A DNA stretch of 30,912 bases, taken from contig JBBQEB010000024.1 of assembly GCA_038320275.1 (NCBI GenBank), forward strand, positions 1 to 30,912, in the 5' to 3' direction. Below, piece by piece: positions 225 through 26,085 of the stretch. The first letter of the stretch is position 1, and every line of letters begins with the position of its first letter. Made by a program: the position numbers and the translations under genes. Under the pieces are notes generated by a model. The model searched no databases. It had not been told where the DNA came from and was given only the letters and a program-made list of their open reading frames with translations. This stretch comes from Myxococcales bacterium. GTDB taxonomy: Bacteria; Myxococcota; Myxococcia; Myxococcales; Anaeromyxobacteraceae.

Positions 225-1220
225 GTGCCCCACCGCTCCGCCACCTCCGCGCTCCTCGCCGCCACCCTGGCGATGGCGCTGGCCGTCCCCGCGGTCGCGG
301 CGGCCGGCCCCATCCTCACCACCTACCAGTACCACCTCGCCACCAGCACCGGAGTCGTGCCCTTCAGCGGCGTGCAGCTCGCCTACGACCGCTATCACGA
401 CGAGCTCTACGTGATGGGCGATGGCCCGGTGCGGGTCTTCAACGCCACCGGGATGGAGGTCTTCAGCTTCGGCGAGTCCACCGACCTCGGCAACATCCAG
501 AGCGTCGCGGCCACCGAGAACGGCGACCTCATCGCGCTCACCATGGTGGAGGGCAAGCAGGTGTTGATCCGCTGCAACTATCGCGGCGAGCGGCTGGGCG
601 TCATCACGCCGCAGGGCGTCCCGCCGGAGCGGGCCGGGTTCGTGCCGGGCTCGCTGAAGTACGCGAACGGCAGGATCTACCTCGCCAGCCAGGGCGAGAT
701 GACCTTCATGGTCCTGGATGCCGCGGGCAAGTTCGAGGCCTTCTTCGACGCGTACACCCTGGTGGACAGCGAGGACGTCCGCAAGAAGGCGGCGCAGCGG
801 ACCGACCTGGGCGTGCGCGGCTGGAACATCGACAAGGGCGGCAAGATCCTCTTCACGGTGCAGCCGCTCTTCCGCTGCTACGTGCTCTCCCTGGACGGCT
901 CCATCACCGCGTTCGGCACGCGCGGGAGCGGCCCCGGCAAGTTCAACGTCATCTCCGGCATCGCCGGGGACGACCTGGGCAATCTCTACGTCACCGACAT
1001 CCTCAAGTCGGCGGTGATCGCCTTCGACAAGGACTTCCACTTCATCCGCGAGTTCGGCTACCGCGGCCCGAAGCCGTCCAACATCGTGTCGCCGGTGGAC
1101 ATCGCGGCCGGCAACGGCAAGGTCTTCGTGTCCCAGTACGCGCGGCGCGGCGTGAGCGTCTTCAAGGTGGAGACGGACGCGGGCGGCGAAGCGGCGGGCG
1201 GCTCGCGCATCCGGTTCTGA
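225..1220 (+). CDS. Secreted NHL-repeat beta-propeller protein, first gene of the omcS/osc cluster
   Basis: Signal peptide (MPHRSATSALLAATLAMALAVPAVAAA). NHL motifs FGTRGSGPGKFN..SGIAGD..GNLYVTD and FGYRG...SPVDIA. GTG 225 preferred over 33 because AGGA lies upstream and a signal peptide follows. Confidence 0.85.
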   Translation: MPHRSATSALLAATLAMALAVPAVAAAGPILTTYQYHLATSTGVVPFSGVQLAYDRYHDELYVMGDGPVRVFNATGMEVFSFGESTDLGNIQSVAATENGDLIALTMVEGKQVLIRCNYRGERLGVITPQGVPPERAGFVPGSLKYANGRIYLASQGEMTFMVLDAAGKFEAFFDAYTLVDSEDVRKKAAQRTDLGVRGWNIDKGGKILFTVQPLFRCYVLSLDGSITAFGTRGSGPGKFNVISGIAGDDLGNLYVTDILKSAVIAFDKDFHFIREFGYRGPKPSNIVSPVDIAAGNGKVFVSQYARRGVSVFKVETDAGGEAAGGSRIRF

Positions 1221-1300
1221 GCCGCGAGCGGGGCCGGATGTGACGGTCGCGCCTCGAGGCGACGGGCTGCGGCCGTGGCGAAGCGGAGTCGCAGGGCGGA

Positions 1301-1500
1301 CGACCTTCGACTAACGACCGCGACAGTCGAACTCGACCGCGACCGCGACCACCGACCGCGACCACCGACCTCGACCGCGACCGCGACCGCGACCTCGACC
1401 TTCGACCTTCGACCTTCGACCTTCGACCTTCGACCTCGACCTTCGACCTTCGACCTTCGACTTCGCTTCGACTTCGACCTTCGACCTCGACCGCGACCGC
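1301..1500 (+). repeat. Imperfect tandem array of 6-7 bp CGACC(G/T/TT/AC) units
   Basis: Directly visible: cgaccg, cgacct and cgacctt units over about 200 bp of intergenic DNA. Confidence 0.9.
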
Positions 1501-1541
1501 CTCCGTTCGCCCTCAGCTCGGCGAAGCGGAGTCGAACGGAG
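1501..1541. repeat. REP-like palindromic element
   Basis: ctccgttcg...cgaacggag hairpin. Its core ggcgaagcggagtcg (1520-1534) is an exact repeat of 1277-1291, and a related copy lies at 15311-15350. Confidence 0.6.
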
Positions 1542-1710
1542 CCGCGCTTCGCCTACACTCTCCGTGTCATCACCATTGGTGAAGACGCATGATTTGCGCA
1601 TGGCGCCCCAGACCCAGCGTCAAACCGCTGGGGCGCAGAGTTTGCGCGCTTCCCGCTTTGCGCGCGGCGTACACTCTGCGTAAATGTGGGGCAAGAGTTG
1701 GGTGTGGGGA

Positions 1711-1748
1711 CTGGGTGCTTTGCCCCACTTCTGGGTCTCTACACCCAC
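1711..1748. promoter_or_regulatory. Tandem palindromic activator sites (TGGG-N8-CCCA x2) upstream of the omcS sigma54 promoter
   Basis: TGGGtgctttgcCCCA (1712-1727) and TGGGtctctacaCCCA (1732-1747), 20-bp period, 65-100 bp upstream of the -24 box. Confidence 0.5.
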
Positions 1749-1811
1749 CTACATCCCCCCACCAGGGGAGCGAAATCGCTGGAAAGCGGGCTGTTTCGCG
1801 ATCGCGCCGCT

Positions 1812-1827
1812 GGGCACGCTGTCTGCA
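1812..1827 (+). promoter_or_regulatory. Putative sigma54 promoter of omcS
   Basis: gGGCACGctgtcTGCa has GG at 1813-1814 and GC at 1825-1826 (N10 spacing). Confidence 0.6.
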
Positions 1828-1932
1828 CAAGGGGCAGACCATCGCAGTTGTAGGGCAGGCGGCACCCAAGTCCTCCGCAGTCGCAGCCTCGACGACAACG
1901 CAGCTCATCAGCAGTCCAGGAGAAGACAAGAC

Positions 1933-3237
1933 ATGAAGTTCATGAGACTCGCAGTCGCAGTCGGCTTCGCGCTGGCGTTCGGCAACGCGCAGGCCTTCCA
2001 CTCGGGCGGCGTCGCCGAGTGCGAGGGCTGCCACTCGATGCACAACTCCGAGGGCGGCGTGGCCAACGTCACCGGCATGCCCCAGTACACCTCCGGCCCG
2101 TACCTCCTCAAGGCGAACGATGCGTCGGGCGCCTGCCTCAACTGCCACAACTCGCCCGATGCGGCCGCCACCGGCTACCACATCTCCACCGACGACTCGA
2201 AGCTCGGCCCCGGCCTTCCCCCCGTCGAGATGACCCCCGGCGGCGACTTCGCCTGGCTGAAGAAGACCTACCTCATCCACATCCGTGGCGCGCCGCTCAC
2301 GAACGAGGGCGATCGCCACGGCCACAACATCATCGCCCAGGACTTCGGCTTCGCGGCCGACAAGGAGCTGGTTACCGCTCCCGGCGGCAGCTACCCGGCG
2401 GCGAACCTCGGCTGCCAGAGCTGCCACGACCCGCACGGTAAGTACCGCCGCTTCGCGGACGGCTCGATCGCCACCACCGGTCTCCCCATCTTCGCCTCCG
2501 GCTCCTACGGCACCAGCGCTGCCCCCATCGCCAACGTCTCCGCGGTGGGAGCCTATCGCCTCCTCGGGGGGGTGGCTTACCAGCCGAAGTCGCTCGTCGG
2601 GAACTTTGCCTTCGCCAATACCGTTCCTGCCGCCTCCGCTCCCTCGTCCTACAACCGCGCCGAGACCTCCGGCCAGACCCACGTCGCCTACGGCAAGGGC
2701 ATGTCCGAGTGGTGCGCCAACTGCCACACCGCCATGCTGGAGAACAGCTACGTCTCCGGCATGAAGGGCCTCGTCCACCCGGCCGGCAACGCCGCCAAGC
2801 TCACCGCGCCCATCGTCGCCAACTACAACAGCTACGTGAGCTCGGGCATCATGACCAACACCGACCCGCTCAAGGCCTACTCGACCCTCGCTCCCTTCGA
2901 GCTCGGCACGGCGGACTACACGGTCCTGAATGCCCTCGCCGTCATCACCGACACCAAGGACCAGTCGGCCTCGACGGGCGCCAACGTCTCCTGCCTCTCC
3001 TGCCACCGCGCCCACGCCTCCGCCTTCCAGAGCATGGCCCGCTACAACCTCTCGAACGAGTTCATGACCATCGCCGACGCGTCCAACGCGGCCGCCTACG
3101 ACCCCTCGACGACGGAGAACAAGGTTAACTACGGCTACAACGTCGCCGAGCAGACCAACGCGTACTACGGCCGCGCCGCCACCGCGTTCGGCCCGTACGC
3201 CCGCAACTACTGCAACAAGTGCCACGCCAAGGACTAG
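1933..3237 (+). CDS. omcS: Hexaheme c-type cytochrome, OmcS/OmcT nanowire family
   Basis: AGGAG RBS and Sec signal ending AQA. Mature N-terminus FHSGGVAECEGCHSMHNS, six CxxCH motifs, internal motifs MTPGGDF, GHNI, CHDPHGKYRRF.DGSIATTGLPI and GMSEWCANCH, and C-terminal CNKCHAKD all match G. sulfurreducens OmcS as I recall it. Confidence 0.95.
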   Translation: MKFMRLAVAVGFALAFGNAQAFHSGGVAECEGCHSMHNSEGGVANVTGMPQYTSGPYLLKANDASGACLNCHNSPDAAATGYHISTDDSKLGPGLPPVEMTPGGDFAWLKKTYLIHIRGAPLTNEGDRHGHNIIAQDFGFAADKELVTAPGGSYPAANLGCQSCHDPHGKYRRFADGSIATTGLPIFASGSYGTSAAPIANVSAVGAYRLLGGVAYQPKSLVGNFAFANTVPAASAPSSYNRAETSGQTHVAYGKGMSEWCANCHTAMLENSYVSGMKGLVHPAGNAAKLTAPIVANYNSYVSSGIMTNTDPLKAYSTLAPFELGTADYTVLNALAVITDTKDQSASTGANVSCLSCHRAHASAFQSMARYNLSNEFMTIADASNAAAYDPSTTENKVNYGYNVAEQTNAYYGRAATAFGPYARNYCNKCHAKD

Positions 3238-3265
3238 CCTTCCCAGGTCCGAAGCGGTCGTGACC

Positions 3266-3293
3266 GGGGGACCGCGCGAGCGGTCCCCCTTTT
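3266..3293 (+). terminator. Intrinsic terminator after omcS
   Basis: Perfect 10-bp stem gggggaccgc/gcggtccccc, GCGA tetraloop, followed by tttt(cattt). Confidence 0.85.
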
Positions 3294-3375
3294 CATTTGC
3301 GCCAGGATCTCGGGCCTTTCCGAATCCTGCCCCGTCGTCTAGAGTCGCGCGCCTCGCCGCTGTGCTGGAGGTTGG

Positions 3376-4782
3376 ATGAAAGGCTCGCTGACCGCGGTCG
3401 CCTTCGTCGCAGCGCTGGCCGGCTGCGCCGCGCAGCGCGCCGCCACGCGCACGCTCCCGCCGCTCGGGCAGGGCGAGGGCGAGCTGTACCTGTACCTGGA
3501 AGCGATGCCCCCAGGGTCGCGGCTCGCCTTCACGGTGGAGTCGGTGGCGGCCGTCTCGGCCGAAGGACCTGCGGTCCCGCTGACCGTGGCGAGGGCCGAG
3601 GTCTCGGCCGAAGCGGCCTCCCGCCAGCGGCTCCTGGCCTCCGGGCGGCTCCCGGCAGGCGAGTACCGGGCACTTCTCCTGAAAGTGGGGCGCGCCACCT
3701 TGCGCGACGGCGACAAGGCTCACGATCTGCTCGTCGGGACCGAGGCGAGCCGGGTGGAGCTGCCACTGGTAGTGAGCCGCGGCCGGGCGTCGGTGGTGGC
3801 GCTGGCGCTTGATCCGGGGCGCGCGGTGGACGAGAGCTACCGCTTCACGGCCGCCTTCCGGGCCTCGGTTCCCGACGCGCCGATGATCGCGCGCACCGGG
3901 TACGTGACGAGCACCCCCGCCGCAACGCTCCTCCTTTTCGACCGCCACGACCACCGCGTCGTCGGGGCCCTCCCCACCGGCCGGGAGCCCTGCGGCGTCG
4001 TCCTCGACCCCTCTCGTAATCGGGCCTACGTGGCGCTGGCGGGCGACGACGCCGTGCAGGTGATCGACCTCCCCACCGGCACCGAGCTGGGGCGAGTCAC
4101 CCTGCGAAACGGCGACCGCCCGCGCGAGCTGGGGCTCTCCACCGATGGCCGCACCCTGCTGGTGGTGGAGCAGGGCTCCAACGCGCTCAGCTTCGTGGAC
4201 ACGGCCGGCCTCGCCGAGACCGACCGGCTGGCCACCGGCGAGGAGCCGCGCGCGCTCCTCCTCGACCGCGCCGGGCGGCGCGCCTACGTGCTCAACCACC
4301 GGACGAACAGCGTCACGGTGGTCGATGTCGCCAGCCGGACCCTGGTGACCACCCTCGGCACCGAGGCGGAGCCGGTGCGGGCGCAGCTCAACCGGGCCGG
4401 CGACCGGCTGTATCTCCTGCACGCCGGGTCGCCCTACATGACGGTACTCAGCCTGCCGGCGTTCACCGCGCGCAGCCGGGTCTTCGTCGGGCTGGGCGCC
4501 AGCGCGCTCAAGGTCGATCCCCGCTCCGACCTCGTCTACGTGGGCACCCGGGACGAGGACCGCCTGCAAGTTTTCGATCCCTTCTCGCTCCTGCCGGTGA
4601 GCTTCCTGGAGGTGCCAGGAGGCGCGGGCTATCTCGCCATCGACGACCTGGAGAACGCGCTGTTGGTGCTCTCGGCGGAAGGGCGCTCGCTCTCGTTCGT
4701 GGACCTCACCAGCCGCAGGGTGGTGGGGGCAGTGGACGTGGGTTCGGAGCCGTACCAGCTCGCCGTGCCGGGGGAGCGCTGA
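3376..4782 (+). CDS. oscD: Lipoprotein with YVTN/YncE-type beta-propeller (OscD-like)
   Basis: Lipobox LAG-C and GGAGG RBS. Repeats such as RAYVLNHRTNSVTVVD and TGREP/TGEEP/VGSEP. Symbol assigned from fold and position. Confidence 0.8.
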   Translation: MKGSLTAVAFVAALAGCAAQRAATRTLPPLGQGEGELYLYLEAMPPGSRLAFTVESVAAVSAEGPAVPLTVARAEVSAEAASRQRLLASGRLPAGEYRALLLKVGRATLRDGDKAHDLLVGTEASRVELPLVVSRGRASVVALALDPGRAVDESYRFTAAFRASVPDAPMIARTGYVTSTPAATLLLFDRHDHRVVGALPTGREPCGVVLDPSRNRAYVALAGDDAVQVIDLPTGTELGRVTLRNGDRPRELGLSTDGRTLLVVEQGSNALSFVDTAGLAETDRLATGEEPRALLLDRAGRRAYVLNHRTNSVTVVDVASRTLVTTLGTEAEPVRAQLNRAGDRLYLLHAGSPYMTVLSLPAFTARSRVFVGLGASALKVDPRSDLVYVGTRDEDRLQVFDPFSLLPVSFLEVPGGAGYLAIDDLENALLVLSAEGRSLSFVDLTSRRVVGAVDVGSEPYQLAVPGER

Positions 4783-4862
4783 AGCTGCGCGCGTCTCGCC
4801 TCGTCTCGCAGCGCGCGACAGGGCCGCGCGCGGTTGCCAGCGAGCGTCGGTGCGGGGCCGCG

Positions 4863-7040
4863 GTGGCTCTCGTGGCCGCCCTGGCCTCCCTCGCCTGGTC
4901 TCCCTCGGCCCGCGCCGACACCTCGGCGGTGGCGGAGCCCAGCTACTCCAATTCGAAGCTCGATACGCGCGACGCTTCGGGCGTCACCCACGGGACGCAG
5001 AGCACGCTCGATCAGCGCTACCGCCTCAACCTCGACGAGTCCATCTTCCCGCTGGTGAAGCTGGGGCTGGGCGGCATCTACGACTGGGCGCTCACCTCCG
5101 GCACCACCGAGGGGCTCCGCACCGACCAGGACTCGCGCCGCTGGACCGCCTTCGCCCACCTTCGGGCGGGCGATCCCATCCTCTCCGGCGCGCTCGACTA
5201 CGACCGCAGCCAGCAGAGCGCCGCCTCCACCACCGCCGGCGTGCGCTCGGCGCAGTCGCCCCTGGTGCGCGAGGTCTATGCGGCGGCGCTGGGCTGGCGC
5301 CCGGCCGACCTCCCCACGGTGGACCTGCGCCTCAGCCGCGCGCACCTCTTCGACGAGGCGCGGCTCGCGAGCGATCAGCGCACGGACGAGCTCTTCCTAT
5401 CCTCCACCTACCGCCCGTCGCGCGCCCTCGACCTGGGGTACTCGCTGCGCTTCTCCGACGTGACCGACCAGCTCCATCTCCTGGAGCAGAAGGAGCTCGT
5501 CAACGCGGCCCGCTTCACCTGGTCCGACAAGGTGCTCTCCGATCGCGGCACCGCCTACGTCTCCTACTCCATCGCGAACCGCCGCAGCGATGCCAGCGTC
5601 ACCGGCACCGGCGGCGTCGTCCCCACCCTGCAGGTCGCCACCGCCGGGCTGTCGCTGGTGGAGGCGTTTCCGGCCACCCCGGACCGGGACACGCTGACGC
5701 CCAACCCCGCCCTGGTGGATGGCGAGACCACCCTCTCGGCGGGGCTCGACCTGGGCTTCGCGCCGACGCTGGCGGGCGACCTCGCCTTCCGCGATCTCGG
5801 CGCGAGCTTCGGGGTGACGCTCACCAGCGTCAACGCGGTGTACGTGTACGTGGACCGGCAGCTCCCCCCCGAGGTGGCGCGGGGGGTGGCCTGGGCGGCC
5901 TATACCAGCAACGACAACGTGCTCTGGACGCCGCTCCCGCTCGTGGGCCCGGTGGCCTTCGGGCTCTTCGCGAACCGCTTCGAGATCCCGGTCGCCCGCA
6001 CCGACGCCCGCTTCGTGAAGGTGGTGGCGAAGCCGCTCACCACCGCCGTGACGACCGACCGGCAGTGGGCCAACATCCTCGTCACCGAGGCCCAGTTCCT
6101 GCTCGTGCTCCCCGGCGACCAGGTGCAGCGCCACGTCACCACCACCGGTGGCCAGCTCAGCGCCACCGGCAAGTACGTCATCCTTCGGAACCCCGTCCTC
6201 ACCTTCGACAGCTCGCTCTTCGTCACCCACCAGGACGACCCGGCGCGCCTGACCTGGAGCGTGCTCAATGGCCTCTCTTTCTCGCGGCGGCTCACGGCCG
6301 TGTACGGCCTGAGCGCGCGGGTGGATCGCTCCGATACGCAGGTGGCCGGCGGGCACGAGTCGGAGAACCGCGCCAGCGCGGCGCTCTCGGCCGACTTCCT
6401 GCCCACGCTGGGAGGGGGCCTCACCTACAGCGGCCGCCTCGGCCAGACCCGCCTCGGCACCGCCTTCTCCAACGGCGTGAGCGCGTTTGCCCGGGCCGAC
6501 CTGTACACCGGCGTGAGCGTGTCCTCGAACGCCAGCCTGAACGTGGGGCAGAACGAGCTGCGGCAGACCACCAACAGCACGTCCCTGGCGGCGAGCGCTA
6601 CCCTCAACCCGCACCCCACCACCGCGTTCACCGGCGCCTACGCCCTCTCCCGCAGCTCCATCACCGGGGGGTTGGCACCGGCGCATTCCGACACCAGCTC
6701 GCGCGTGGACGGGACGGTCTCCTTCACGCCCGCACCCGCGCTCTACCTCGCGGCGGGCGCCTCCCACTACGTGACCGGGGGGGCGGGGACGACGCTCGCC
6801 AACGTGGGGCTCAACCTCTCCCCCTTCCCGCGCGGCGACCTCCAGGCCCGCTTCTCGTACAGCGACTCGCTCGACACCTCGTCCAGCCTGCGCCAGCGGA
6901 TCTGGGGCCCGTCCTTGCGCTGGAACATCCGCCGCGGCTGGTTCGCGGATGCCTCGTATACTGTCAACCTCACCCGCACCCCGGCGCTCGAGACGACGAC
7001 CAAGACGTTCTTCGTGTCGCTCGTACTCGCGCTCCGGTGA
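4863..7040 (+). CDS. oscE: Outer-membrane beta-barrel protein with inserted soluble domain (OscE-like)
   Basis: Signal peptide ending ARA. Long Ser/Thr/aromatic-rich alternating beta-strands and a terminal strand FFVSLVLALR. Start uncertain because the frame is open back to CTG 4779. Symbol is positional. Confidence 0.8.
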   Translation: MALVAALASLAWSPSARADTSAVAEPSYSNSKLDTRDASGVTHGTQSTLDQRYRLNLDESIFPLVKLGLGGIYDWALTSGTTEGLRTDQDSRRWTAFAHLRAGDPILSGALDYDRSQQSAASTTAGVRSAQSPLVREVYAAALGWRPADLPTVDLRLSRAHLFDEARLASDQRTDELFLSSTYRPSRALDLGYSLRFSDVTDQLHLLEQKELVNAARFTWSDKVLSDRGTAYVSYSIANRRSDASVTGTGGVVPTLQVATAGLSLVEAFPATPDRDTLTPNPALVDGETTLSAGLDLGFAPTLAGDLAFRDLGASFGVTLTSVNAVYVYVDRQLPPEVARGVAWAAYTSNDNVLWTPLPLVGPVAFGLFANRFEIPVARTDARFVKVVAKPLTTAVTTDRQWANILVTEAQFLLVLPGDQVQRHVTTTGGQLSATGKYVILRNPVLTFDSSLFVTHQDDPARLTWSVLNGLSFSRRLTAVYGLSARVDRSDTQVAGGHESENRASAALSADFLPTLGGGLTYSGRLGQTRLGTAFSNGVSAFARADLYTGVSVSSNASLNVGQNELRQTTNSTSLAASATLNPHPTTAFTGAYALSRSSITGGLAPAHSDTSSRVDGTVSFTPAPALYLAAGASHYVTGGAGTTLANVGLNLSPFPRGDLQARFSYSDSLDTSSSLRQRIWGPSLRWNIRRGWFADASYTVNLTRTPALETTTKTFFVSLVLALR

Positions 7041-7057
7041 GGCGAAGGGAGAACGCC

Positions 7058-7669
7058 ATGTCCATCGCTCGTGTCCTCGTGGATCGCCCGTCGCGGTGGG
7101 GCCTGGCCGCTGCCGCGACGCGAGGAGCGGGGCTGCTCGTGGTCCTCCTCGCGCTCGCCTGCGCCTCCGGGCACCGCTACCAGGACGCGCAGATGGACTT
7201 TGGCTCCGTGAAGACGGTGGCGGTGCTGCCCTTCGCCAACCTCTCGCGCGACAACCTGGCCGGCGAGCGGGTGCGCGACACCTTCGCCAACGCGCTCCTC
7301 GCCACCGGCGCGGTGTACGTGCTGCCCGCGGGCGAGGTGGCGCGGGCGCTGGGCAAGGCGGGGGTGGCCAACGCCGCCGCCCCCAGCAGCGAGGAGATCG
7401 TCAAGCTCTGCCAGGCGGTCAAGGCGGACGCCGTGATCACGGCGGTGGTGAAGGAGTACGGCGAGCTGCGCTCCGGCACCGCCACCGGCAACGTCGCCTC
7501 GGTGAGCGCGCAGATGCTGGAGGGCACCACCGGCAAGGTGGTCTGGGCCGCCAGCACCACCAAGGGAGGCATCGGGCTCTCCGACCGGCTCCTGGGCGGC
7601 GGCGGCGCGCCGCTCAACGACGTCACGGAAGCGGCGGTCGATGACCTCGTCTCGAAGCTGCTCAAGTAG
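7058..7669 (+). CDS. oscF: CsgG/TolB-N-like lipoprotein (OscF-like)
   Basis: GGGAG RBS, lipobox LALA-C, motifs VKTVAVLPFANLS, ADAVITAVVKEY and TGKVVW. Symbol is positional. Confidence 0.8.
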   Translation: MSIARVLVDRPSRWGLAAAATRGAGLLVVLLALACASGHRYQDAQMDFGSVKTVAVLPFANLSRDNLAGERVRDTFANALLATGAVYVLPAGEVARALGKAGVANAAAPSSEEIVKLCQAVKADAVITAVVKEYGELRSGTATGNVASVSAQMLEGTTGKVVWAASTTKGGIGLSDRLLGGGGAPLNDVTEAAVDDLVSKLLK

Positions 7670-8897
7670 CTTCGCGCTGGCGGTTGCGGGGGCGCTTCTG
7701 CTCGCGCCCGCCGTGGCGCGCCCGCAGAGCCCGCAACCCCCGCAAAGTTCGGCGTCCGGAGCGCTCGGGCCGGCCGCCGCCGGCTCGCGGGTCGCCGCGG
7801 GCGGAGCCCCGCCACTCGGTGCAGGCCCTCGGATTGCCCTCTTCCCGCTCGAGAACCTGGCCGGCACCGCCGCGCCTCTGCGGGAGCTGCGTGGCGCGCT
7901 GGAGGCGTCGCTCGCCCGCGCCGGGCTCCGGGTGGTCGCTGCCGAGACGCTCGACGCCTTCCTCACGAAGCACCGCGTCCGCTACACCGGCGGGGTGGAG
8001 TCCGGCATCGCGAAGTCCGCCGGCGAGGAGCTGGGCGTTTCGGCCATCGTCCTCGCTGCGCTGGAGGGCTACGCACCGGACGCGCCCCGCCTCGCGCTCA
8101 CCATGCGGGCGGTGGGCGCGCGCGAGGAGGCCCCCATTCTCTGGATCGACGGGCTGAGCCGCGCCGGGGACGAGTCGCCCGGGTTCCTGGGGCTCGGGCT
8201 CGTGCGGAGCCCGGTCGTGCTGCAGGAGCAGATCTTCTCACGGCTCTCCGGCTCGCTGGCGGCGGCGCTGGCGGGCAAGGGGCCGCTCGCCGGCGCCTGC
8301 GAGGGGGCTGGCCGCTTCCGCCCCAAGGTCCGCTACCGCTCCGCCCTCCTCTCCCCGGGCCGCAACTACTCGGTGGCGGTGGTGCCCTTCCGCAGCTTCG
8401 CCAAGCGCCGCAACGCGGGGGACCTCCTGGCGCTGGAGCTCCTCCGGCAGCAGGCCGCCACCCAGGGCTTCCGCGTCATCGAGCCGGGCGTGGTGCGGGA
8501 GGTGATCCTGAAGCACCGCATCGTGATGGAGGGCGGGGTGTCGCTCGACCAGGTCCGCACGCTGGTGGGGGCGCTCGGCGCCGACCTCGTCATCGCCGGC
8601 GACGTCTTCGAGCTGGACGACGCCGGGAGCGTGCCGGTGGTGAGCTTCACCGCCAGCATGCTGGACGCCCGCACGGGCGACATCGTCTGGCAGGCGAGCG
8701 CCTACGCCCGCGGCGACGAGGGGCTGCGGCTCTTCGGCACCGGGATCGTGCGAACCGCCCCCGCCCTCGCCTGCAGGGTTCTGCGCACCTCGCTCGACGA
8801 GCTCTTCGACCTGAAGGCGTTCGAGCCCATCGAGCGCCGGGCGAGCGAGCCGGCCAAGAAGGGCGGCTGGAAGCCGCGGGAGGGCGGCGCCGAGTGA
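7641..8897 (+). CDS. oscG: Secreted protein with two CsgG/TolB-N-like domains (OscG-like)
   Basis: Signal peptide, then a duplicated domain starting RIALFPLENL and SVAVVPF, with LGADLVIAG and DARTGDIVW. Overlaps the previous gene. Symbol is positional. Confidence 0.78.
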   Translation: MTSSRSCSSSFALAVAGALLLAPAVARPQSPQPPQSSASGALGPAAAGSRVAAGGAPPLGAGPRIALFPLENLAGTAAPLRELRGALEASLARAGLRVVAAETLDAFLTKHRVRYTGGVESGIAKSAGEELGVSAIVLAALEGYAPDAPRLALTMRAVGAREEAPILWIDGLSRAGDESPGFLGLGLVRSPVVLQEQIFSRLSGSLAAALAGKGPLAGACEGAGRFRPKVRYRSALLSPGRNYSVAVVPFRSFAKRRNAGDLLALELLRQQAATQGFRVIEPGVVREVILKHRIVMEGGVSLDQVRTLVGALGADLVIAGDVFELDDAGSVPVVSFTASMLDARTGDIVWQASAYARGDEGLRLFGTGIVRTAPALACRVLRTSLDELFDLKAFEPIERRASEPAKKGGWKPREGGAE

Positions 8898-9088
8898 GCG
8901 GTCGAGACTGTGCGCGTTCTCAGCACGGCCTTCAACCAGGCGCTCCGCGCCTCCCTTCGCGAACGGTAGAGGCAGGAGCCAGGTGCAAAAGTGCCGCCCG
9001 CCCATGACCCCGCGCAACCCCTGCGCCTCATCGGCGCTCGGATTTCGTCAAAACGTGAGTTTTAGCGGCACTTTGACGCAGTTCACGG

Positions 9089-9104
9089 CGGCATGAGCGT
9101 TGCA
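9089..9104 (+). promoter_or_regulatory. Internal sigma54 promoter upstream of the PPIase and cytochrome genes
   Basis: cGGCATGagcgTTGCa has GG at 9090-9091 and GC at 9102-9103. It is preceded by an AT-richer patch with the inverted repeat cgtcaaa/tttgacg (9046-9078). Confidence 0.7.
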
Positions 9105-9194
9105 CGCTCCCGCGTCACCGCCGCTGAGAAGTTCGACACCTGGTGCTTCCGCTCTGAAAAGGGGCCGCGCCCGGTCTTTCGAGGGTCTCCACGC

Positions 9195-10958
9195 ATGAAC
9201 CGTCTCGCCGCTGGGCTGCTCCTCACCGCACTTCCAGCCCTGCTCAGGGCCGCCGATGCTCCGGCGCCCGCCGCTCCCGCCCCTCCAGTCGCTCCCCCGG
9301 CGGCCGCGGCGAGCGCCGGCCCCCGGCCGGAGTCGATGTCCGCCTACTTCACGGGCGAGGACGGCACGCCAGCCAAGGCGCCCCTCTTCGCGGACGGCTC
9401 GCGGGCGCTGCCCATCGCCAAGGTGGGCGGCGAGCCCATCGCCCTCTCCGAGCTCATGACCGCGCTCGGCACCGCCCACGACACCATGACGAAGGAGGTC
9501 CACGCCGGCGGCAAGGACTTCAAGCCGGTGCTGGACCGCCTGATCGACGTGAAGCTGGTGCTGCTGGAGGCCCGCGAGATGGGGCTCGCCGATCAGCCGG
9601 AGGTGAAGAAGGCCGTCGAAGGATACGTGGAGAGCGCGACCATCCAGGAGCTGCAGAAGCGCGCGCTGGTGGACGTGAAGCCCGACCCCGCCGAGGTGGA
9701 GAAGATCCGCCGCATCGGGGTGAAGGAGGGGAAGGTCCAGTCGGTGCTGTTCAAGACCGAGGCCGACGCCAAGGCGTTCGCCGCGGCGGCGAAGAAGAGC
9801 GGGTTCGACGCCTCCGCCAAGGCCGCGGTCGCGAGCGGCAAGGCCACCGGCGGCAAGCCGGCCGAGTTCGTGCCGCTCCAGAAGCTGCTGGGGCCGGTCG
9901 CCAACGCGCTCGAGAAGATGAAGAAGGGCGAGGTGAGCAAGCCGGTCAAGATCCCGGAGGGCTTCACCGTGCTCGAGCTGGAGGACATCCGCTACCCCGC
10001 GAACGCGGCGGCGCTGGCTACCGCCCGGGAGATCGCGCTCGACGCGGCCCGCAAGCGGGCCATCCAGAAATACTACGACGGCCTCGTCGCGAGGTACGTC
10101 AAGACGGACAAGGCGCTGCTGAAGCGGCTCGACTTCCAGGCCAAGAAGCCGGGCTTCGCGGCCCTGGAGAAGGACCAGCGCGTGCTGTCGCGCGTGGAGG
10201 GAGGGGCGCCGCTCACCGTGGCTGAGCTCACCACCACGCTGAAGGAGCAGTTTTATCACGGGGTGGACTCGGCCATCCGCGAGAAGAAGGTGAACCGGCA
10301 GAAGCTGCCCACGCTCGACGCCATCCTCTCCCGGCGCGTGCTGCCGCTGGAGGCGAAGCGGCTCGGCATCCCGGAGTCGCCCGCGTTCAAGAAGGGCGTG
10401 GCCGACTACACCGATAAGGTCGTCTTCACCTCCTTCGTGGAGAAGGTGGTTCTGCCGGAGGTGAAGGTGCCGGACGCCGAGCAGCAGAAGTACTACGAGG
10501 CGCACAAGGCCGAGTACACGCTGCCCGCCTTCTACAAGCTCGAGAGCATCGCCTTCCCGGACGTGAAGCGAGCCCAGGCCGCGCTCCAGAAGCTCCAGTC
10601 TGGAACCGATTTCGCCTGGCTGCGCGCCAACGCCGAGGGCCAGGTGAAGGAGGTCTCCCGCGGGGTCAAGTTCGAGGGCGGCACCGTGTCGGCGAAGGCG
10701 ATGCCCGAGGAGCTCGCGAAGCTCCTCGCCAACGCCAAGGCCGGAGACTACCGCCTCTACTCTGGCGAGGGCGACCAGCACCACGTCGTCCACGTCCTGC
10801 AGGTGACGCCGCCGGAGGTAAAGTCGTTCGCGCAGGCTCAGGACGGCATCCACCAGAAGCTCTACGCCGACCACCTCAACGCCTCCATCCGCCAGTTCTC
10901 CGACAAGCTGCGCCAGGCCCATCCGGTGAAGGTCTACCTCAAGAAGATCGGCTCCTGA
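9195..10958 (+). CDS. oscH: PpiC/SurA/PrsA-type peptidyl-prolyl isomerase chaperone (OscH-like)
   Basis: Signal peptide. SurA-N-like IAKVGGEPI, LDRLID..L.LLEAREMGL. Parvulin-like MKKGEVSKPVKIPEGFTV. The architecture is duplicated in the C-terminal half. Confidence 0.88.
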   Translation: MNRLAAGLLLTALPALLRAADAPAPAAPAPPVAPPAAAASAGPRPESMSAYFTGEDGTPAKAPLFADGSRALPIAKVGGEPIALSELMTALGTAHDTMTKEVHAGGKDFKPVLDRLIDVKLVLLEAREMGLADQPEVKKAVEGYVESATIQELQKRALVDVKPDPAEVEKIRRIGVKEGKVQSVLFKTEADAKAFAAAAKKSGFDASAKAAVASGKATGGKPAEFVPLQKLLGPVANALEKMKKGEVSKPVKIPEGFTVLELEDIRYPANAAALATAREIALDAARKRAIQKYYDGLVARYVKTDKALLKRLDFQAKKPGFAALEKDQRVLSRVEGGAPLTVAELTTTLKEQFYHGVDSAIREKKVNRQKLPTLDAILSRRVLPLEAKRLGIPESPAFKKGVADYTDKVVFTSFVEKVVLPEVKVPDAEQQKYYEAHKAEYTLPAFYKLESIAFPDVKRAQAALQKLQSGTDFAWLRANAEGQVKEVSRGVKFEGGTVSAKAMPEELAKLLANAKAGDYRLYSGEGDQHHVVHVLQVTPPEVKSFAQAQDGIHQKLYADHLNASIRQFSDKLRQAHPVKVYLKKIGS

Positions 10959-10989
10959 CGTGGCGGGCGCTCCGCAGCGAGGGTCCATC

Positions 10990-12996
10990 GTGAACCGTCT
11001 CCCCCACGTCCGCGCCGCCCTGGCGGCGCTGCTCGCGACGGGCGCGCTCCTCCTCTGCGCGGTGCCCCTCCGCGCCTCCGCCCAGCTCGGCAAGGGCGGC
11101 GACACCACGGCCGCCAAGGGCATGAAGGGCCGCGACTGCATCGACTGCCACAAGAAGTTCGAGGAGAAGTACGGCGGGATGCCCTACGCGCACTCGGCGG
11201 TGAAGGCGCGGCGCTGCGAGGATTGCCATCTGCGGCACGGCATCGTCCCGAAGCTCATCCTGAAGACGAGCGGCAACGCGCTCTGCTACTCCTGCCACAA
11301 GCGCGAGTCGATCGGCATGGACAAGCCGTTCGTGCACAGCGCGCTCAAGGAAGGCGCCTGCACAGGCTGCCACGATCCGCACGGCGCCCAGGCGAAGCAC
11401 CTCCTCAAGGCAGAGGGGAAGGCCGCCTGCTACGGCTGCCATGACAAGACGCGGTTCGAGGGCAAGGTTGTGCACGCGGTGGTGAACTCGCCCGCGAGCT
11501 GCGGCACCTGCCACGCAGCGCACGGGTCAGCCCAGAAGAATCTCCTCAAGGCCGAGCCGCTGAAGGCGTGCGTCGGCTGCCACGACGCCGCGAAGCCCGC
11601 CTTCGCCAAGGCGCACGGCGGCTACCCGGTGGCCACCAGGACCTGCACCACCTGCCACGATCCACATTCCTCGGCGCAGCCCAAGCTCCTGCGGGCCTCC
11701 ACGCACAATCCCATGGTCACCGGCTCCTGCGACGCCTGCCACGCCGCGGCGACCTCGGCGAAGCCCTTTGCGGTGAGCGAGAAGGGCGCCAAGCTCTGCG
11801 CCAATTGCCACGACGACAAGACGCTCACCGCCGGCGGCAAGGTGGTGCACGCTCCGTTCAGCTCGGGCGACTGCCTCTCCTGCCACGATCCGCACGCGGC
11901 CGCCGGCGCCAAGCTCACCCTCGCCTCGGGCAACAAGCTCTGCTTCGGCTGCCACCCGGCCATGGCCGAGAAGGTGAGCGTGCCGCACAAGCCGGTGATG
12001 GCGGCGAACGGCTGCGTCTCCTGCCACAGGCCACACGCCGCGCCGCAGAAGGCGCTCCTCTCCACCGACGCCAGCACGCTCTGCCAGTCCTGCCACCAGG
12101 CCTCGAAGGCCAAGGTCGCGACCGCCAAGGTCGTCCACAAGCCGTTCAGCGCGGGGCAGTGCATCGCCTGCCACTCCCCGCACGGCTCGAACTTCCCGGG
12201 CATGCAGAAGGCCCGGGGAGACCGCACCTGCTACAAGTGCCACCAGGACGCGGAGTCGCGCTTCGTGAAGGCGCACACCCATCGTCCCGTGATCGACGGC
12301 AACTGCAGCGCCTGCCACACCGGCCACGCCTCCGAGACGCCCAAGCTGCTGCGCGCGAGCGGCGCCAAGCTCTGCCAGGGCTGCCACGCCGAGATCATGA
12401 AGGCGGTGGCCCAGGGCGGCACCACGCACCCGCCCTTCGCTTCGGGCGACTGCCTGACCTGCCACGATCCCCACGGCTCGAACCAGCCGGCCATGCTGGT
12501 GTCGGACGCGAAGACGCTGTGCGCGGGCTGCCACCCGAGCGTCGAGAAGGAACAGCAGGGCGCGAAGAGCGTGCACGCCGCCTTCGGCACCGGCGAGTGC
12601 ACCAAGTGCCACGGCGCGCACAAGGCCAACTTGAAGAAGCTGCTCCTCGCGCCGAGCCCGGACCTCTGCCTCTCCTGCCACAAGCCGATGGCGGCGAAGC
12701 TCGCGAGCGAGAAGAAGCACCAGCCGGTGGACGACTGCCTCTCCTGCCACAAGCCGCACGCCTCCAAGCAGGCGCACCTCGGCACGGCGCCGGTGGCGGA
12801 GCTCTGCGGCGGCTGCCACGACGGGAAGGCCAAGGGGTTCGCCAAGGCGCACCTCGGCATCGACCCCGCGACCATGGCTTGCGTGAGCTGCCACGACCCG
12901 CACGCCTCCAAGGACCCGAAGCTCTTCAAGGCGGTCGTGCACGCGCCGTTCGCTGGCCGGCAGTGCGAGGCCTGTCACGTGGGGGAGACGAAGTGA
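10990..12996 (+). CDS. 26-heme periplasmic c-type cytochrome (doubled-CxxCH repeats)
   Basis: 26 CxxCH motifs counted by hand, repeat H.P....CxxCH.PH......L......LCxxCH, signal peptide. GTG 10990 follows GAGGG (alternative start 10960). Confidence 0.92.
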   Translation: MNRLPHVRAALAALLATGALLLCAVPLRASAQLGKGGDTTAAKGMKGRDCIDCHKKFEEKYGGMPYAHSAVKARRCEDCHLRHGIVPKLILKTSGNALCYSCHKRESIGMDKPFVHSALKEGACTGCHDPHGAQAKHLLKAEGKAACYGCHDKTRFEGKVVHAVVNSPASCGTCHAAHGSAQKNLLKAEPLKACVGCHDAAKPAFAKAHGGYPVATRTCTTCHDPHSSAQPKLLRASTHNPMVTGSCDACHAAATSAKPFAVSEKGAKLCANCHDDKTLTAGGKVVHAPFSSGDCLSCHDPHAAAGAKLTLASGNKLCFGCHPAMAEKVSVPHKPVMAANGCVSCHRPHAAPQKALLSTDASTLCQSCHQASKAKVATAKVVHKPFSAGQCIACHSPHGSNFPGMQKARGDRTCYKCHQDAESRFVKAHTHRPVIDGNCSACHTGHASETPKLLRASGAKLCQGCHAEIMKAVAQGGTTHPPFASGDCLTCHDPHGSNQPAMLVSDAKTLCAGCHPSVEKEQQGAKSVHAAFGTGECTKCHGAHKANLKKLLLAPSPDLCLSCHKPMAAKLASEKKHQPVDDCLSCHKPHASKQAHLGTAPVAELCGGCHDGKAKGFAKAHLGIDPATMACVSCHDPHASKDPKLFKAVVHAPFAGRQCEACHVGETK

Positions 12997-13007
12997 GGCA
13001 CCACACC

Positions 13008-14285
13008 ATGCGAACCGCCCCGCTCCTCCTCGTGTGCGCGCTCGCTGCCGCCGCCGCGCTGCCGGTCGCGGGCGCCGCCGGCCCCAACGACGCCAGGTGG
13101 AAGCTCCGCCCCGGCGCGCAGGGCAAGCTCTGCCTCGACTGCCACACCGGGCAGTTCCAGGACGTGCTGAAGAAGGCGTCGGTGCACACGCCCGTGCGCA
13201 CCGGCGACTGCGTCGGCTGCCACAATCCGCACGCGGCCCAGCACGCGAAGCTGCTCGCCGACGATCCCAGCAAGACGTGTTTCGCCTGTCACGACGTGGT
13301 GCCCAAGGCGCCGAAGAGCACGCACAAGCCCATCTCCGAGAAGGGCTGCGTGAGCTGCCACGACCCGCACGCCTCCAACTTCAAGTTCAACCTGGTGAAG
13401 GCGCAGGGCGACCTGTGCGCGAGCTGCCACAAGGGTATCGCCGAGGGGGCGGCCAAGGCCAAGGTGAAGCACGGCCCGCTCGCGAAGAACGGCTGCGGCG
13501 CCTGCCACAACCCGCACGGCTCAGCCAAGGCGACCAAGCTCCTCTCGAACGAGGTGCCCGGGCTCTGCGTGGGCTGCCACAAGGTGGACCGGCCGGGGTT
13601 CGCCGCCAAGCATTTCAACTACCCGGTGGCGAAGTCGCGCTGCACGAGCTGCCACGACCCGCACGGCTCGAACAAGAAGGGCATGCTCTACGACCGGGTC
13701 CACGCGCCGGTGGCGAAGGGCATGTGCTCGCAGTGCCACAACCCGGCCGGCTCCCCGGCGGCCCTCGCCACCCGCCAGCAGGGCGTGGCGCTGTGCAGGG
13801 GCTGCCACAATCAGGCCGTGAACGGGATGATGGACAAGAACCAGATCCACCGTCCGGTGGCCGAGGGGAGCTGCCTCTCCTGTCACAACCCGCATGCGTC
13901 GCCCGCCAAGGGCATGCTCAAGGGCACGCAGCTTCAGGTCTGCGGCACCTGCCACGAGGACTCGATCAAGCGGCAGACCCTCTCGCCCACCAAGCACGAG
14001 CCGGTGAAGGACGGCAACTGCACCGCTTGCCACGAGGCGCACTCGTCGAACCAGTCGCTCATGTTCGTGAAGGCCGACATGACCGAGATGTGCGGCGCCT
14101 GCCACGACTGGCTCAAGCACTCATCGCATCCGATGGGCGCGAAGCTCACCGACCCGCGCAACAAGAACCTCCACGTCGACTGCCTGAGCTGTCATCGCGC
14201 CCACGGCACCGAGTACAAGCACATGATGCCGTACGCCTCGACGTCCGACCTCTGCACCAAGTGCCACGAGAAGTTCTCGAGGTGA
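13008..14285 (+). CDS. 16-heme periplasmic c-type cytochrome (doubled-CxxCH repeats)
   Basis: 16 CxxCH motifs counted, signal peptide MRTAPLLLVCALAAAAALPVAGA. Alternative GTG 12993 overlaps the previous stop. Confidence 0.92.
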   Translation: MRTAPLLLVCALAAAAALPVAGAAGPNDARWKLRPGAQGKLCLDCHTGQFQDVLKKASVHTPVRTGDCVGCHNPHAAQHAKLLADDPSKTCFACHDVVPKAPKSTHKPISEKGCVSCHDPHASNFKFNLVKAQGDLCASCHKGIAEGAAKAKVKHGPLAKNGCGACHNPHGSAKATKLLSNEVPGLCVGCHKVDRPGFAAKHFNYPVAKSRCTSCHDPHGSNKKGMLYDRVHAPVAKGMCSQCHNPAGSPAALATRQQGVALCRGCHNQAVNGMMDKNQIHRPVAEGSCLSCHNPHASPAKGMLKGTQLQVCGTCHEDSIKRQTLSPTKHEPVKDGNCTACHEAHSSNQSLMFVKADMTEMCGACHDWLKHSSHPMGAKLTDPRNKNLHVDCLSCHRAHGTEYKHMMPYASTSDLCTKCHEKFSR

Positions 14286-15205
14286 TGGCCGTGATCCCCT
14301 TTCGCAAGCTCGCGCTGCGCGCCGCCGGCGCGGCGCTCCTCCTCGCCGGCGCGCCCGCCGCCCGCTCGCAGGGCATCGCGCTCACCTTCGAGCAGGCGGT
14401 CTACGCCGATGGCGCCGACAAGGACGCCAAGGCGCTCAAGGCTCCGCGAGGCGTGGCCTGCGGCGAGACGGGCGGGGTGGTGGTGGCCGACACCGGCAAC
14501 GGGCGGCTCGTGCGCTACGCCCTGCGCGAGGGGCGGCTCTCCGGGGGCACCGAGATCAAGCTGCCGCAGCTCACCTACCCGGTGAGCGTGGAGCTCGACA
14601 GCAAGGGCACCATCCTGGCGCTCGACGGCAAGACCCGGAAGCTGGTGCGGGTGGCGCCGAACGGGACCTTCCAGGGGGTGGTGGAGGTGCGCGGGGCCTC
14701 GGGCACTGCGGTGCTGCCCTCGAGCTTCGCCATCGACGCCGCCGACAACCTGTACGTGCTCGACGCGGCCACCCGGCGCGTGCTGGTGCTCGGGCCGGGC
14801 GGCGCCATGACGCGCCAGGTGGAGCTGCCGAAGGAGGGCGTCTTCACCGACGTGGCGGTGGACGCGTCGGGCACCGTGTACGCGGTGGACGCGGTGGGCG
14901 TGGCGGTTTGGTCGGCGGAGAAGACGGCCCCGGCCTTCAAGCCCCTCACGAAAGGCATGAAGGACAAGATGAGCTTCCCCTCGCGCATCCTCGCGAAGAA
15001 GGGGCGGCTCTACCTGGTGGACGAGCACGGCATGGGCATCGTGGTGTTGGGAATCGACGGCAGCTACCAGGGTCGCCAGCTCAGCCTCGGCTGGAAGGAG
15101 GGGTTCGTGTACTACCCCGACCAGCTCTGCATGACAGACGCAGGCCAGGTCTTCATCGCCGACCGCGACAACAACCGGGTGCAGTACTTCACCAGCGTGA
15201 AGTAG
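14285..15205 (+). CDS. Secreted NHL-repeat beta-propeller protein, last gene of the osc cluster
   Basis: TGATG coupling, signal peptide, NHL motifs PRGVA...VVVADTGNGRL and VFIADRDNNRVQYF. Confidence 0.88.
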   Translation: MAVIPFRKLALRAAGAALLLAGAPAARSQGIALTFEQAVYADGADKDAKALKAPRGVACGETGGVVVADTGNGRLVRYALREGRLSGGTEIKLPQLTYPVSVELDSKGTILALDGKTRKLVRVAPNGTFQGVVEVRGASGTAVLPSSFAIDAADNLYVLDAATRRVLVLGPGGAMTRQVELPKEGVFTDVAVDASGTVYAVDAVGVAVWSAEKTAPAFKPLTKGMKDKMSFPSRILAKKGRLYLVDEHGMGIVVLGIDGSYQGRQLSLGWKEGFVYYPDQLCMTDAGQVFIADRDNNRVQYFTSVK

Positions 15206-15478: not shown

Positions 15479-16258
15479 TCAGTGGCAGCCGAAGCAGCTG
15501 CCCGTCCAGAGCGGCGTTACCTCCAACGTGCCGTTCCGGTGCTGCGACTGCCCGGTCCTGAGCACCACGTTCGTCGCCACCACTTTGTGGGTGACCTGGT
15601 CGTAGGAGATGAGGCCAGTGGCGTCTGGATGGCAGGTCTGGCAAGCGTTGGTCGTGCCGTACATGGACGGGTAACCGTGCTGCCCGCTGTGCCAGGCGTA
15701 CGCGGTGGGCGGCATGCCGTGGCAGGCGCCGCAGGAGCTCGAACCGCCCGTCGCGTACCAGGAGGGCGTCGGCAGGCTGCCTCCCGCGCCGCCGCCGTAC
15801 GGGTAGGACGTCGCCATCATGCAGCCTCCCTCGCTGTCGGGGACGCCCGGCGGCTCGCAGTTGTAGGAGTAGGCGCTGACCGTCCACGTCCCTGACGCCG
15901 TGTGGCAGGCCACGTTGGAGCAGGTCTTGGCGGTCGCATCGAAGGTGGGCGCCGGCTTTCCGGTCGCCACGGCGGGGCCGCTCGGGTCGAACTGGAGCAC
16001 GCCGCCGCACATGTGACAGGTGGTGCAGCTTGCGAAGGCGTGCTTCGCGTGCCCGCCGTTCGGCGTGCAGATGGGGCCGGTGGGGAGCCCCTCGCCCTGC
16101 ACCAGCGCGGAGGACCGCCCTCCGAGGCGCTCCACTCCCACCTGCGCCGCCGGACTGGACGTGCCCGTGGGCACCTCGTCGCCGCACCCTGCGAGCGCCA
16201 CCGCGGCCAGGCTGCCCGCGATCCATCCCATCCAGGAACCGCGCCTCGTATCACCCAT
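15479..16258 (-). CDS. Multiheme lipoprotein cytochrome c, CxxxxCH/CxxCH domain family (5 heme motifs)
   Basis: AGGGAG RBS, lipobox LAG-C, motifs CTTCH, CSNVACH (CX4CH), CGACH, CQTCH and terminal CFGCH. Confidence 0.88.
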   Translation of the reverse strand: MGDTRRGSWMGWIAGSLAAVALAGCGDEVPTGTSSPAAQVGVERLGGRSSALVQGEGLPTGPICTPNGGHAKHAFASCTTCHMCGGVLQFDPSGPAVATGKPAPTFDATAKTCSNVACHTASGTWTVSAYSYNCEPPGVPDSEGGCMMATSYPYGGGAGGSLPTPSWYATGGSSSCGACHGMPPTAYAWHSGQHGYPSMYGTTNACQTCHPDATGLISYDQVTHKVVATNVVLRTGQSQHRNGTLEVTPLWTGSCFGCH

Positions 16259-26075: not shown

Positions 26076-26085
26076 GGGGCGCCGA

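Follow-up and report, generated by a model that had tools for sequence, protein, structure and literature searches.

An OscC-free osc-type gene cluster with an OmcS-clade hexaheme cytochrome in a member of the Anaeromyxobacteraceae

The sequence analysed here is a contig of 30,912 nucleotides (nt; JBBQEB010000024.1 of GenBank assembly GCA_038320275.1), referred to as the window, from a member of the Anaeromyxobacteraceae. Positions 225–15205 contain ten open reading frames (ORFs), all on the forward strand, which match the omcS/osc locus of Geobacter sulfurreducens. We regard it as probable that they form an intact ortholog of the osc cluster without OscC, which would produce heme filaments of the OmcS type and export them through OscE, a predicted barrel of about 28 strands, underlain by a PelC-type collar of OscF and OscG. 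The gene set and order, the orthology, the heme and histidine complement, the clade of the cytochrome and the terminator behind its gene can be read directly from the DNA, and filament formation by the hexaheme cytochrome of the window would be the predicted outcome.

Gene content and correspondence to the G. sulfurreducens locus

The cluster begins with gene A (225–1220, with the start at 225 or 273), which codes for an NHL-like propeller protein and is followed by the gene of the hexaheme cytochrome (1933–3237), an OmcS-clade protein and predicted filament subunit of 434 amino acids (aa) with six CxxCH motifs and a signal peptide, the mature chain being encoded from position 1993. Downstream lie the orthologs of oscD (3376–4782; a lipobox lipoprotein with a YncE-like beta-propeller, PF21783, E-value 2e-11), oscE (4863–7040; a predicted outer-membrane barrel without a family match in the Pfam/NCBIfam scan), oscF (7058–7669; a lipoprotein of the PelC/GNA1162 fold with a lipobox), oscG (7641–8897; two PelC/GNA1162-like domains), oscH (9195–10958; a SurA/PpiC-type peptidyl-prolyl isomerase (PPIase) chaperone, PF13145, E-value 6e-28), oscI (10990–12996; a periplasmic cytochrome with 26 hemes and paired CxxCH motifs, 26 in number), oscJ (13008–14285; an intact 16-heme cytochrome with 16 CxxCH) and oscK (14285–15205; an NHL-repeat protein, PF01436). 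The expected Pfam or NCBIfam domains were found in OscD, OscH, OscI, OscJ, and OscK, and OscF and OscG matched a GNA1162-like family. An initial annotation, made from the sequence, had described a co-oriented OmcS homolog, propeller lipoprotein, beta-barrel, PPIase, and 26- and 16-heme cytochromes in this span, and all of these genes are present. Its description of the genes as mostly tightly coupled holds for five of the nine junctions (at most 31 nt), but not for the remaining four (712, 138, 80, and about 200–300 nt). Likewise, of the NHL genes that it placed at both ends, K carries the domain, whereas A had no Pfam match and owes its label to a sub-cutoff NCBIfam match (ScyF-NHL, E-value 1e-12) and to orthology.

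In tblastn searches against the G. sulfurreducens reference genome, whose OmcS is identical to PDB 6EF8 over 407 aa, all ten window proteins matched the omcS/osc locus (GSU2505, GSU2504, and GSU2500–GSU2493) in conserved order. The identities were 38% for A (to the gene upstream of omcS, E-value 1e-61, with the reverse match returning to A), 57% for the hexaheme cytochrome, 42% for OscD, 31% for OscE, 59% for OscF, 34% for OscG, 35% for OscH, 53% for OscI, 50–53% for OscJ, and 41% for OscK. Conversely, each of the ten G. sulfurreducens proteins had its best match in the source genome of the window in the corresponding window gene. Forward whole-genome searches, made for four of the ten genes (oscD, oscE, oscF, and oscH), all had their best match at the osc locus, and these four are reciprocal best hits. 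The eight-gene block from oscD to oscK is orthologous and colinear with GSU2500–GSU2493 throughout (8/8), with an NHL gene and an OmcS-family hexaheme gene upstream of it, and the two loci also share the 26- and 16-heme counts and the overlap of the oscF and oscG reading frames. The initial claim of a complete OmcS gene with an osc-type assembly and secretion cluster is thus borne out by orthology and synteny, in both search directions as far as these were taken.

The window locus differs from that of G. sulfurreducens in the absence of omcT, of a gene for a 1035-aa protein (presumably spermidine-synthase-like), of oscC between omcS and oscD, of a cyclic di-GMP (c-di-GMP)-I riboswitch, and of the lipobox of OscG, as well as in its intact oscJ and an additional, convergent lipoprotein cytochrome gene. 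In the reference genome of G. sulfurreducens, a frameshift splits the 16-heme gene oscJ after ten hemes (L161:1-958 / L162:12216-13458), and a frameshift at position 868 of oscJ is described as differing between strains (PMC13194489). The osc names used here and the proposed roles, namely folding for OscH, secretion for OscEFG and filament morphology for OscD, are those given in PMC13194489 and PMC12977616.

The hexaheme cytochrome and the terminator behind its gene

The hexaheme protein aligns end to end with OmcS of PDB 6EF8 (E-value 1e-146) and is 60% identical to G. sulfurreducens OmcS, as compared to 52% for OmcT and 48% for OscC. Twelve histidines are near-invariant among 147 homologs and all twelve are present in the window protein, the inter-subunit ligand near the N-terminus being presumably His16. 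In OmcS, 12 histidines have been described as heme ligands, one of them contributed by the neighbouring subunit (PMC6584659). Replacement of His247 by Leu was considered as the loss of a heme ligand and rejected, as Leu occupies this position in 33 of the 147 homologs. In a tree built on 52 selected rows (OmcJ and 51 of the 147 homologs; LG+G4 model), the window protein and G. sulfurreducens OmcS fell into one clade of 32 rows (support 100/97), OscC formed a separate clade (100/100), and OmcT and OmcJ stood apart. A grouping of the window protein with OscC was rejected by the approximately unbiased (AU) test (p-AU 7e-5, 30 rows). This placement sustains the initial annotation of the gene as an OmcS homolog, and orthology to OmcS proper is likely, though not certain.

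Between omcS and oscD, an intrinsic terminator-like hairpin of 10 bp followed by a T run is located at 3266–3289 on the forward strand. Such hairpins were found in 43 of 79 spacers between a hexaheme gene and oscD, as compared to 28 of 1580 base shuffles, with the reservation for this and the following clade counts that related loci are not independent. Within at most 160 nt of the stop codon, a terminator is present in 11 of 14 members of the myxobacterial OmcS clade and in 13 of 21 members of the Geobacterales OmcS clade, whereas the OscC clade has one in 15 (one more locus being too short to score) and the divergent second copies have none in eight. From this contrast between the OmcS and OscC clades we infer that omcS of the window would be expressed as an abundant cargo, and that OscC genes would be read through together with the machinery. 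A sigma-70 promoter scan gave no sites, and the RNA-family scan upstream of omcS, apart from the riboswitch treated below, gave miRNA matches at chance level (E-values up to 5).

The predicted export channel and the proposed mechanism

The AlphaFold model of OscE (predicted local distance difference test (pLDDT) 91, predicted TM-score (pTM) 0.65) has about 28 barrel strands according to our own DSSP count and no plug. A domain of about 165 aa with weak likeness to CBM32/F5-8C (E-value 0.0035) is inserted at residues ~235–400, and a search of the ESM Atlas with OscE returned only unnamed clusters. Mature OscF comprises about 168–169 aa, its alignment with PelC has no large insertions, and the strands of its model (pLDDT 91) are those of the short core only, so that OscF is modelled as a PelC-type lipoprotein without membrane strands. 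GNA1162 and PelC rank first in the fold comparison of this model (TM-scores 0.61–0.66, E-values 3-5e-9), and profiles of OscF (59 rows) and OscG (34 rows) also retrieved PelC (9H80, 5T11, 5T10, 5T0Z) and GNA1162 from the PDB. The C-terminal domain of OscG is paralogous to OscF (E-value 2.5e-19). The lipobox cysteine of OscG is lost in the window, in a genome of the same genus (G009), and in L071, but kept in most homologs (28 of 34 anchored rows, by a loose pattern). PelC is described as forming rings that lack the membrane segments of CsgG and cap the PelB barrel (PMC13631591, PMC12141448), and a porin route is favoured for OmcS in PMC13712944. Based on the plug-less barrel of OscE and on the PelC-type character of OscF and OscG without membrane strands, OscE is likely the pore, and OscF and OscG likely constitute a periplasmic PelC-type collar beneath it, both its ring form and its docking being putative. 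The PelBC system (PDB 9H80, 5T11, 5T0Z; PMC12141448) is similar in that OscF and the domains of OscG have the fold of PelC and lie beside a barrel encoded by one gene, but PelB consists of 16 strands plus tetratricopeptide repeats (TPRs) and exports polysaccharide, whereas OscE is modelled with about 28 strands and an inserted domain. A literature search for OmcS in connection with PelC found nothing relevant, although Shen et al. (2025) may already make this comparison.

In the mechanism that we propose, omcS would be made in excess, its transcripts for the most part ending at the hairpin upstream of oscD. Once exported by Sec and loaded with heme, the monomers would be chaperoned by OscH, a role proposed for the G. 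sulfurreducens protein. Lipid-anchored OscF, together with OscG that has no lipid anchor, would assemble into a ring beneath OscE, in the manner of PelC and PelB, and this ring would guide the subunits into the plug-less barrel. The subunits would polymerise via the inter-subunit histidine ligand, OscD would shape the filament, and the 26-heme OscI and 16-heme OscJ would pass periplasmic electrons to the filament base.

Several observations weigh against such a filament system. OmcT and OscC retain His16 and the remaining ligands as well, so that these are necessary, but not diagnostic. In a mixture-model tree, G. sulfurreducens OmcS fell into an open polytomy with OmcT and OmcJ, which is why the orthology of the window protein to OmcS falls short of certainty. 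The terminator scan of omcS in the G. sulfurreducens reference was negative. No c-di-GMP-I riboswitch was detected at gathering score upstream of omcS in the window or in four loci of the family, while the G. sulfurreducens reference was positive. The source genome contains 29 ORFs with three or more CxxCH motifs, so that other electron routes are possible. According to PMC12977616, polymerisation is known for OmcS alone, and models built on sequence are unable to recognise authentic OmcS in organisms outside the genus. PMC13194489 describes OmcS as dispensable for the growth of G. sulfurreducens on anodes and for its reduction of Fe(III) oxide, the physiological role of OmcS being disputed. 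Finally, the fold search with OscE found no close solved barrel, and the top TM-score among the listed matches, 0.35 at a root mean square deviation (rmsd) of 16, was obtained for MtrB, which fits a porin-cytochrome conduit equally well.

Alternative interpretations

Such a conduit is the main rival, albeit an unlikely one. In this model, OscE would form a sheath around OscI or OscJ, the cytochromes with 26 and 16 hemes, like that of MtrB around MtrA, and the hexaheme cytochrome would be a surface monomer or short oligomer instead of a secreted polymer. OscI and OscJ indeed score as DmsE/MtrA-type repeats (TIGR03508, E-values 2e-86 and 2e-49), and a large plug-less barrel encoded together with DmsE-type multiheme cytochromes is what the osc cluster has in common with the MtrAB and OetABI conduits. 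However, a TM-score of 0.35 at the above rmsd denotes a generic barrel likeness, and the osc cluster differs from these conduits by its chaperone, propeller, and ring lipoproteins and its terminator-flanked OmcS-clade cargo. PPIase chaperones, propeller lipoproteins, and ring proteins of the PelC type are not known as components of MtrAB-type conduits, which counts against this model. OmcS-like genes have been described beside the porin-cytochrome cassette OetABI (PMC10553843), but the osc genes have been proposed to be necessary for OmcS secretion (PMC13194489, PMC12977616). The conduit and export models are not fully exclusive.

Ranking behind the conduit, and in our view rather improbable, is the interpretation that the hexaheme protein is an OmcS paralog that does not polymerise and resembles OscC or OmcT in function, the cluster then exporting or servicing something that is not a wire. 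The gene occupies the position of oscC directly before oscD and is the sole hexaheme gene of the OmcS family in the source genome assembly, and the eight-gene blocks of 12 Geobacter genomes are reported always to include the GSU2501/OscC type, but not always omcS (PMC12977616). Against this stand the rejected grouping with OscC, the higher identity to OmcS than to OmcT and OscC, and the presence of a terminator as in the OmcS clade, which nearly never follows OscC genes. A hexaheme of the GSU2501/OscC type, which we take for a peculiarity of Geobacter and not for a defining element of the wider family, was not found before oscD, the window gene at this position being of the OmcS clade. Furthermore, since the contig starts 224 nt before gene A, a divergent second hexaheme gene like those of the genomes G019 and G030 may have remained unassembled beyond the contig edge. 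Divergent second hexaheme genes without a terminator are located upstream on the opposite strand in L166, L167, L015, L026, L028, L032, and L017, and possibly represent a myxobacterial stand-in for OscC.

The version of the export channel given in the initial annotation, with OscF and OscG as a CsgG-like ring that would itself span the outer membrane in the manner of curli export, is already disfavoured and can be accorded very little probability. The label CsgG-like is correct at the superfamily level: both proteins fall within the wider CsgG/PelC/LpoB/TolB-N fold group, eight of 59 OscF homologs reach E ≤ 0.01 with Pfam CsgG (2e-5 for the best of them), and CsgG (4UV2) appears at rank 41 for the OscF model (TM-score 0.51, E-value 4e-4), in agreement with a common alpha/beta core. 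PelC and GNA1162 are closer, however, as all 59 OscF homologs match the GNA1162-like family and no CsgG was found at E ≤ 1 in the PDB profile searches with OscF and OscG. CsgG has four membrane strands per subunit (PMC13631591), whereas membrane beta-hairpins of this type were not found in the model of OscF or, as judged by its profile matches to PelC, in OscG. OscF is also short in its mature form, OscG has no lipid anchor in the window and in G009, and OscE alone is modelled as a large open barrel.

Host and separate histories of cargo and machinery

The window constitutes one contig (C24) of a source genome of 4.1 Mb in 343 contigs, which is 91% complete and has a G + C content of 71.7%, in keeping with the very GC-rich genome announced initially. 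In a comparison of RpoB, for which 24 of 28 genomes gave a match, the source genome had an identity of 90–91% with records that bear the titles A. terrae, A. soli, and Anaeromyxobacter sp., as against 69–70% with Geomonas/Citrifermentans. PntB encoded on the window's contig is 77–78% identical to Anaeromyxobacter records, and the window groups in the same family (f1, genus g1) as the contigs of L062, L059, and L071 (genus g8). Marker genes and family grouping thus agree in placing the host in the Anaeromyxobacteraceae and not in the Geobacteraceae, in line with the Anaeromyxobacter-like host proposed earlier. Between gene A and omcS, a tract of tandem repeats with units of 6–7 nt (1312–1500, without strand) is flanked by a 20-nt direct repeat. 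Summed contig depth was 124 in the bin of this tract, as compared to about 14 elsewhere, and it probably is a genomic repeat outside the export system. Outside of it, read depth was mostly 10–18 with few bins at ~26 (run X1, possibly that of the source sample).

Quick trees of OscE (53 rows) and OscH (45 rows) united the myxobacterial copies and one Bdellovibrionales bin in a group with a support of 100, apart from all Geobacterales. The nearest row to the window was the same-genus genome G009 in both trees, and its sister with a support of 99 in that of OscE. In the OmcS tree, by contrast, myxobacteria and Geobacterales were mixed and the nearest neighbours of the window were Geobacterales bins, of another phylum, with 75–78% identity, more than the 60–63% to OmcS of G009. 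This also exceeds the identity of RpoB between the source genome and these same bins (73–74% and 61–63% in two parts), and their OscE and OscH are 25–33% identical to those of the window. Monophyly of the myxobacterial OmcS-clade sequences was rejected (p-AU 0.004 with LG, 0.002 with the mixture model), as was that of the Geobacterales OmcS rows (p-AU 6e-5), and a grouping of the window with G009 was marginally rejected (p-AU 0.036); the groups in these tests were taxonomic, but named after the first tree. The export genes look long resident in the myxobacteria, and omcS has likely been exchanged with Geobacterales separately from the export machinery. An artefact, in which a Geobacter-type stretch would be mis-binned or form a chimera with a myxobacterial contig, as the closeness of OmcS to Geobacterales bins and the tetranucleotide distance of the cluster (96th percentile of 137 genome chunks) might suggest, is effectively refuted by the OscE and OscH trees and by a G + C content at third codon positions (GC3) of 0.90–0.96 across the ten cluster genes, with PntB on the same contig and the roughly even depth outside the repeat also speaking against it.

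When the OmcS tree was rooted with OscC, two Geobacterales groups were nested in a clade (95/94) whose outer rows were all myxobacterial, which hints at a transfer from a myxobacterium to Geobacterales. This direction is tentative because the sampling was centred on the query and the lineage of L023 is unsure, and the GC3 of omcS relative to its neighbours was mixed and indicated no direction. In the literature, nothing was found on horizontal transfer of OmcS involving Myxococcota, although Shen et al. (2025) may already list Anaeromyxobacter clusters. As a tentative scenario, the cargo might be swappable: the myxobacterial osc machinery would be old and OscC-free, with an OscE pore under which the PelC-type OscF/OscG collar sits, and its native cargo would be a filament of the OmcS clade. 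Geomonas/Citrifermentans and a second Geobacterales group would have acquired their OmcS genes from myxobacteria, along with a small lipoprotein cytochrome (described below), and placed them before their own OscC and machinery. A terminator behind the hexaheme gene would then distinguish genuine wire subunits, which sequence by itself has failed to do.

Distribution in the family and beyond

A GTDB-wide scan for the OmcS family centred on the query, of which the best 80 of 269 candidates were analysed, yielded 72 loci. Among these, oscD-oscE-oscF-oscG were complete in 47 and colinear in all 47, so that the arrangement is not due to chance, and where at least 8.5 kb of downstream sequence was available the set was complete in 42 of 47 loci. 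The complete loci span Geobacterales, Myxococcales, Nitrospirota, Rokubacteria, and others. Within the family, an OmcS-family match (E ≤ 1e-30) was obtained for 38 of 91 other genomes and a match to the OscE profile for 47 (34 of them below 1e-100); with these counts, the cluster of the window, real and intact in its sequence, is ordinary for the Anaeromyxobacter family. In the window's own genus, one of ten other genomes has both an OmcS-family gene and OscE, and a fragmented one (G007) has an ortholog of OscH. No OmcS match was found in 24 genomes of the same order that belong to other families. The OmcS-clade type (56–68% identity) is present in about 17 of the 91 genomes, and the named isolates A. 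terrae and A. soli have a more distant hexaheme clade (47–50%). Six further osc clusters of Anaeromyxobacteraceae (L062 of A. terrae, L071 of Anaeromyxobacter sp., G009, G019, G029, and G030) have the same gene order from A to K and, as in the window, a single hexaheme gene before oscD that usually is followed by a terminator. Two loci are rearranged (L164 of G022 and L165 of G038), with A located behind K and, in G022, then a second hexaheme gene.

Homologs of OmcS and PpcA-E have already been stated for A. dehalogenans (PMC10954620), and the osc machinery is termed widespread in the title of Shen et al. (2025, Cell Chem Biol; as cited in PMC13194489). The novelty of the system in this lineage, as initially put forward, was therefore overrated. 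A literature search on Anaeromyxobacter with OmcS or nanowires found no direct filament study among the papers listed, which agrees with the earlier remark that filaments had not been demonstrated directly in this lineage. If expressed as predicted, OmcS-type wires would be a normal option in the Anaeromyxobacter family, in about 40% of its genomes, and not a speciality of Geobacter, and this would matter for iron reduction and for electron transfer between species in soils and sediments. The layout with one hexaheme gene offers a natural minimal version for asking whether assembly needs OscC, and the split histories of cargo and machinery suggest that the machinery accepts foreign subunits, which could serve the engineering of wires.

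Companion cytochrome and neighbouring genes

Convergent to the cluster and outside the span of the initial annotation, a lipoprotein cytochrome with four CxxCH and one CxxxxCH motif is encoded at 15479–16258 on the reverse strand. Homologs (E ≤ 1e-15) were found in 14 of the 91 family genomes, that is, in 13 of 17 with an OmcS-clade hexaheme (at least 56% identity), in none of 21 with distant types only, and in one of 53 without a hexaheme (crossed by hand). A homolog directly follows omcS in six Geobacterales loci, and others occur in 12 of 124 genomes of the family of G071 as well as in G066 and G067, but were not found in the G. sulfurreducens reference, G095, and G096. The protein thus probably is an additional companion of the OmcS subtype of the window in two phyla, and it may serve this subtype as an anchor or entry cytochrome. 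Its use as proof of a co-transfer with omcS was rejected, because family homologs score equally well or better (E-value 5e-51 in G182, at best 1e-37 in the family of G071). Together with the terminator, the companion gene provides testable markers for telling wire-forming OmcS from its paralogs, stated as an open problem in PMC12977616. The osc system and OmcS homologs in Anaeromyxobacter were known already; the present analysis adds a corrected channel model and, as fresh and testable leads, these candidate markers of wire subunits and the possible swapping of cargo.

Next to it, the forward strand codes for a PMT_2 glycosyltransferase with TPRs (~16490–18094), homologs of which lie within the OmcS loci L059, L062, L163, L171, L020, L006, and L024; a link between glycosylation and OmcS loci is possible. 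A small cytochrome with three CxxCH motifs is encoded at 21112–21876 on the reverse strand and has homologs just beyond oscK in G009 and G019 (L163, L166). The genes further downstream have no relation to the cluster and code for a HipA-family YjjJ-like kinase (24756–26762, reverse), an HlyIII membrane protein (26467–27276, forward), serC (~27490–28637, forward), and pntB with its partner subunit (29080–30812, reverse). Elsewhere in the source genome, multiheme ORFs were found on contigs C93, C108, C1, C62, and C104, including three with ten hemes, 820–970 aa, and lipoprotein-like starts, which by their size we take to be MtrC/OmcA-like. Contig C62 has a run of 20-, 14-, and 10-heme ORFs, and a triheme cytochrome is c7-like as labelled by its motifs only.

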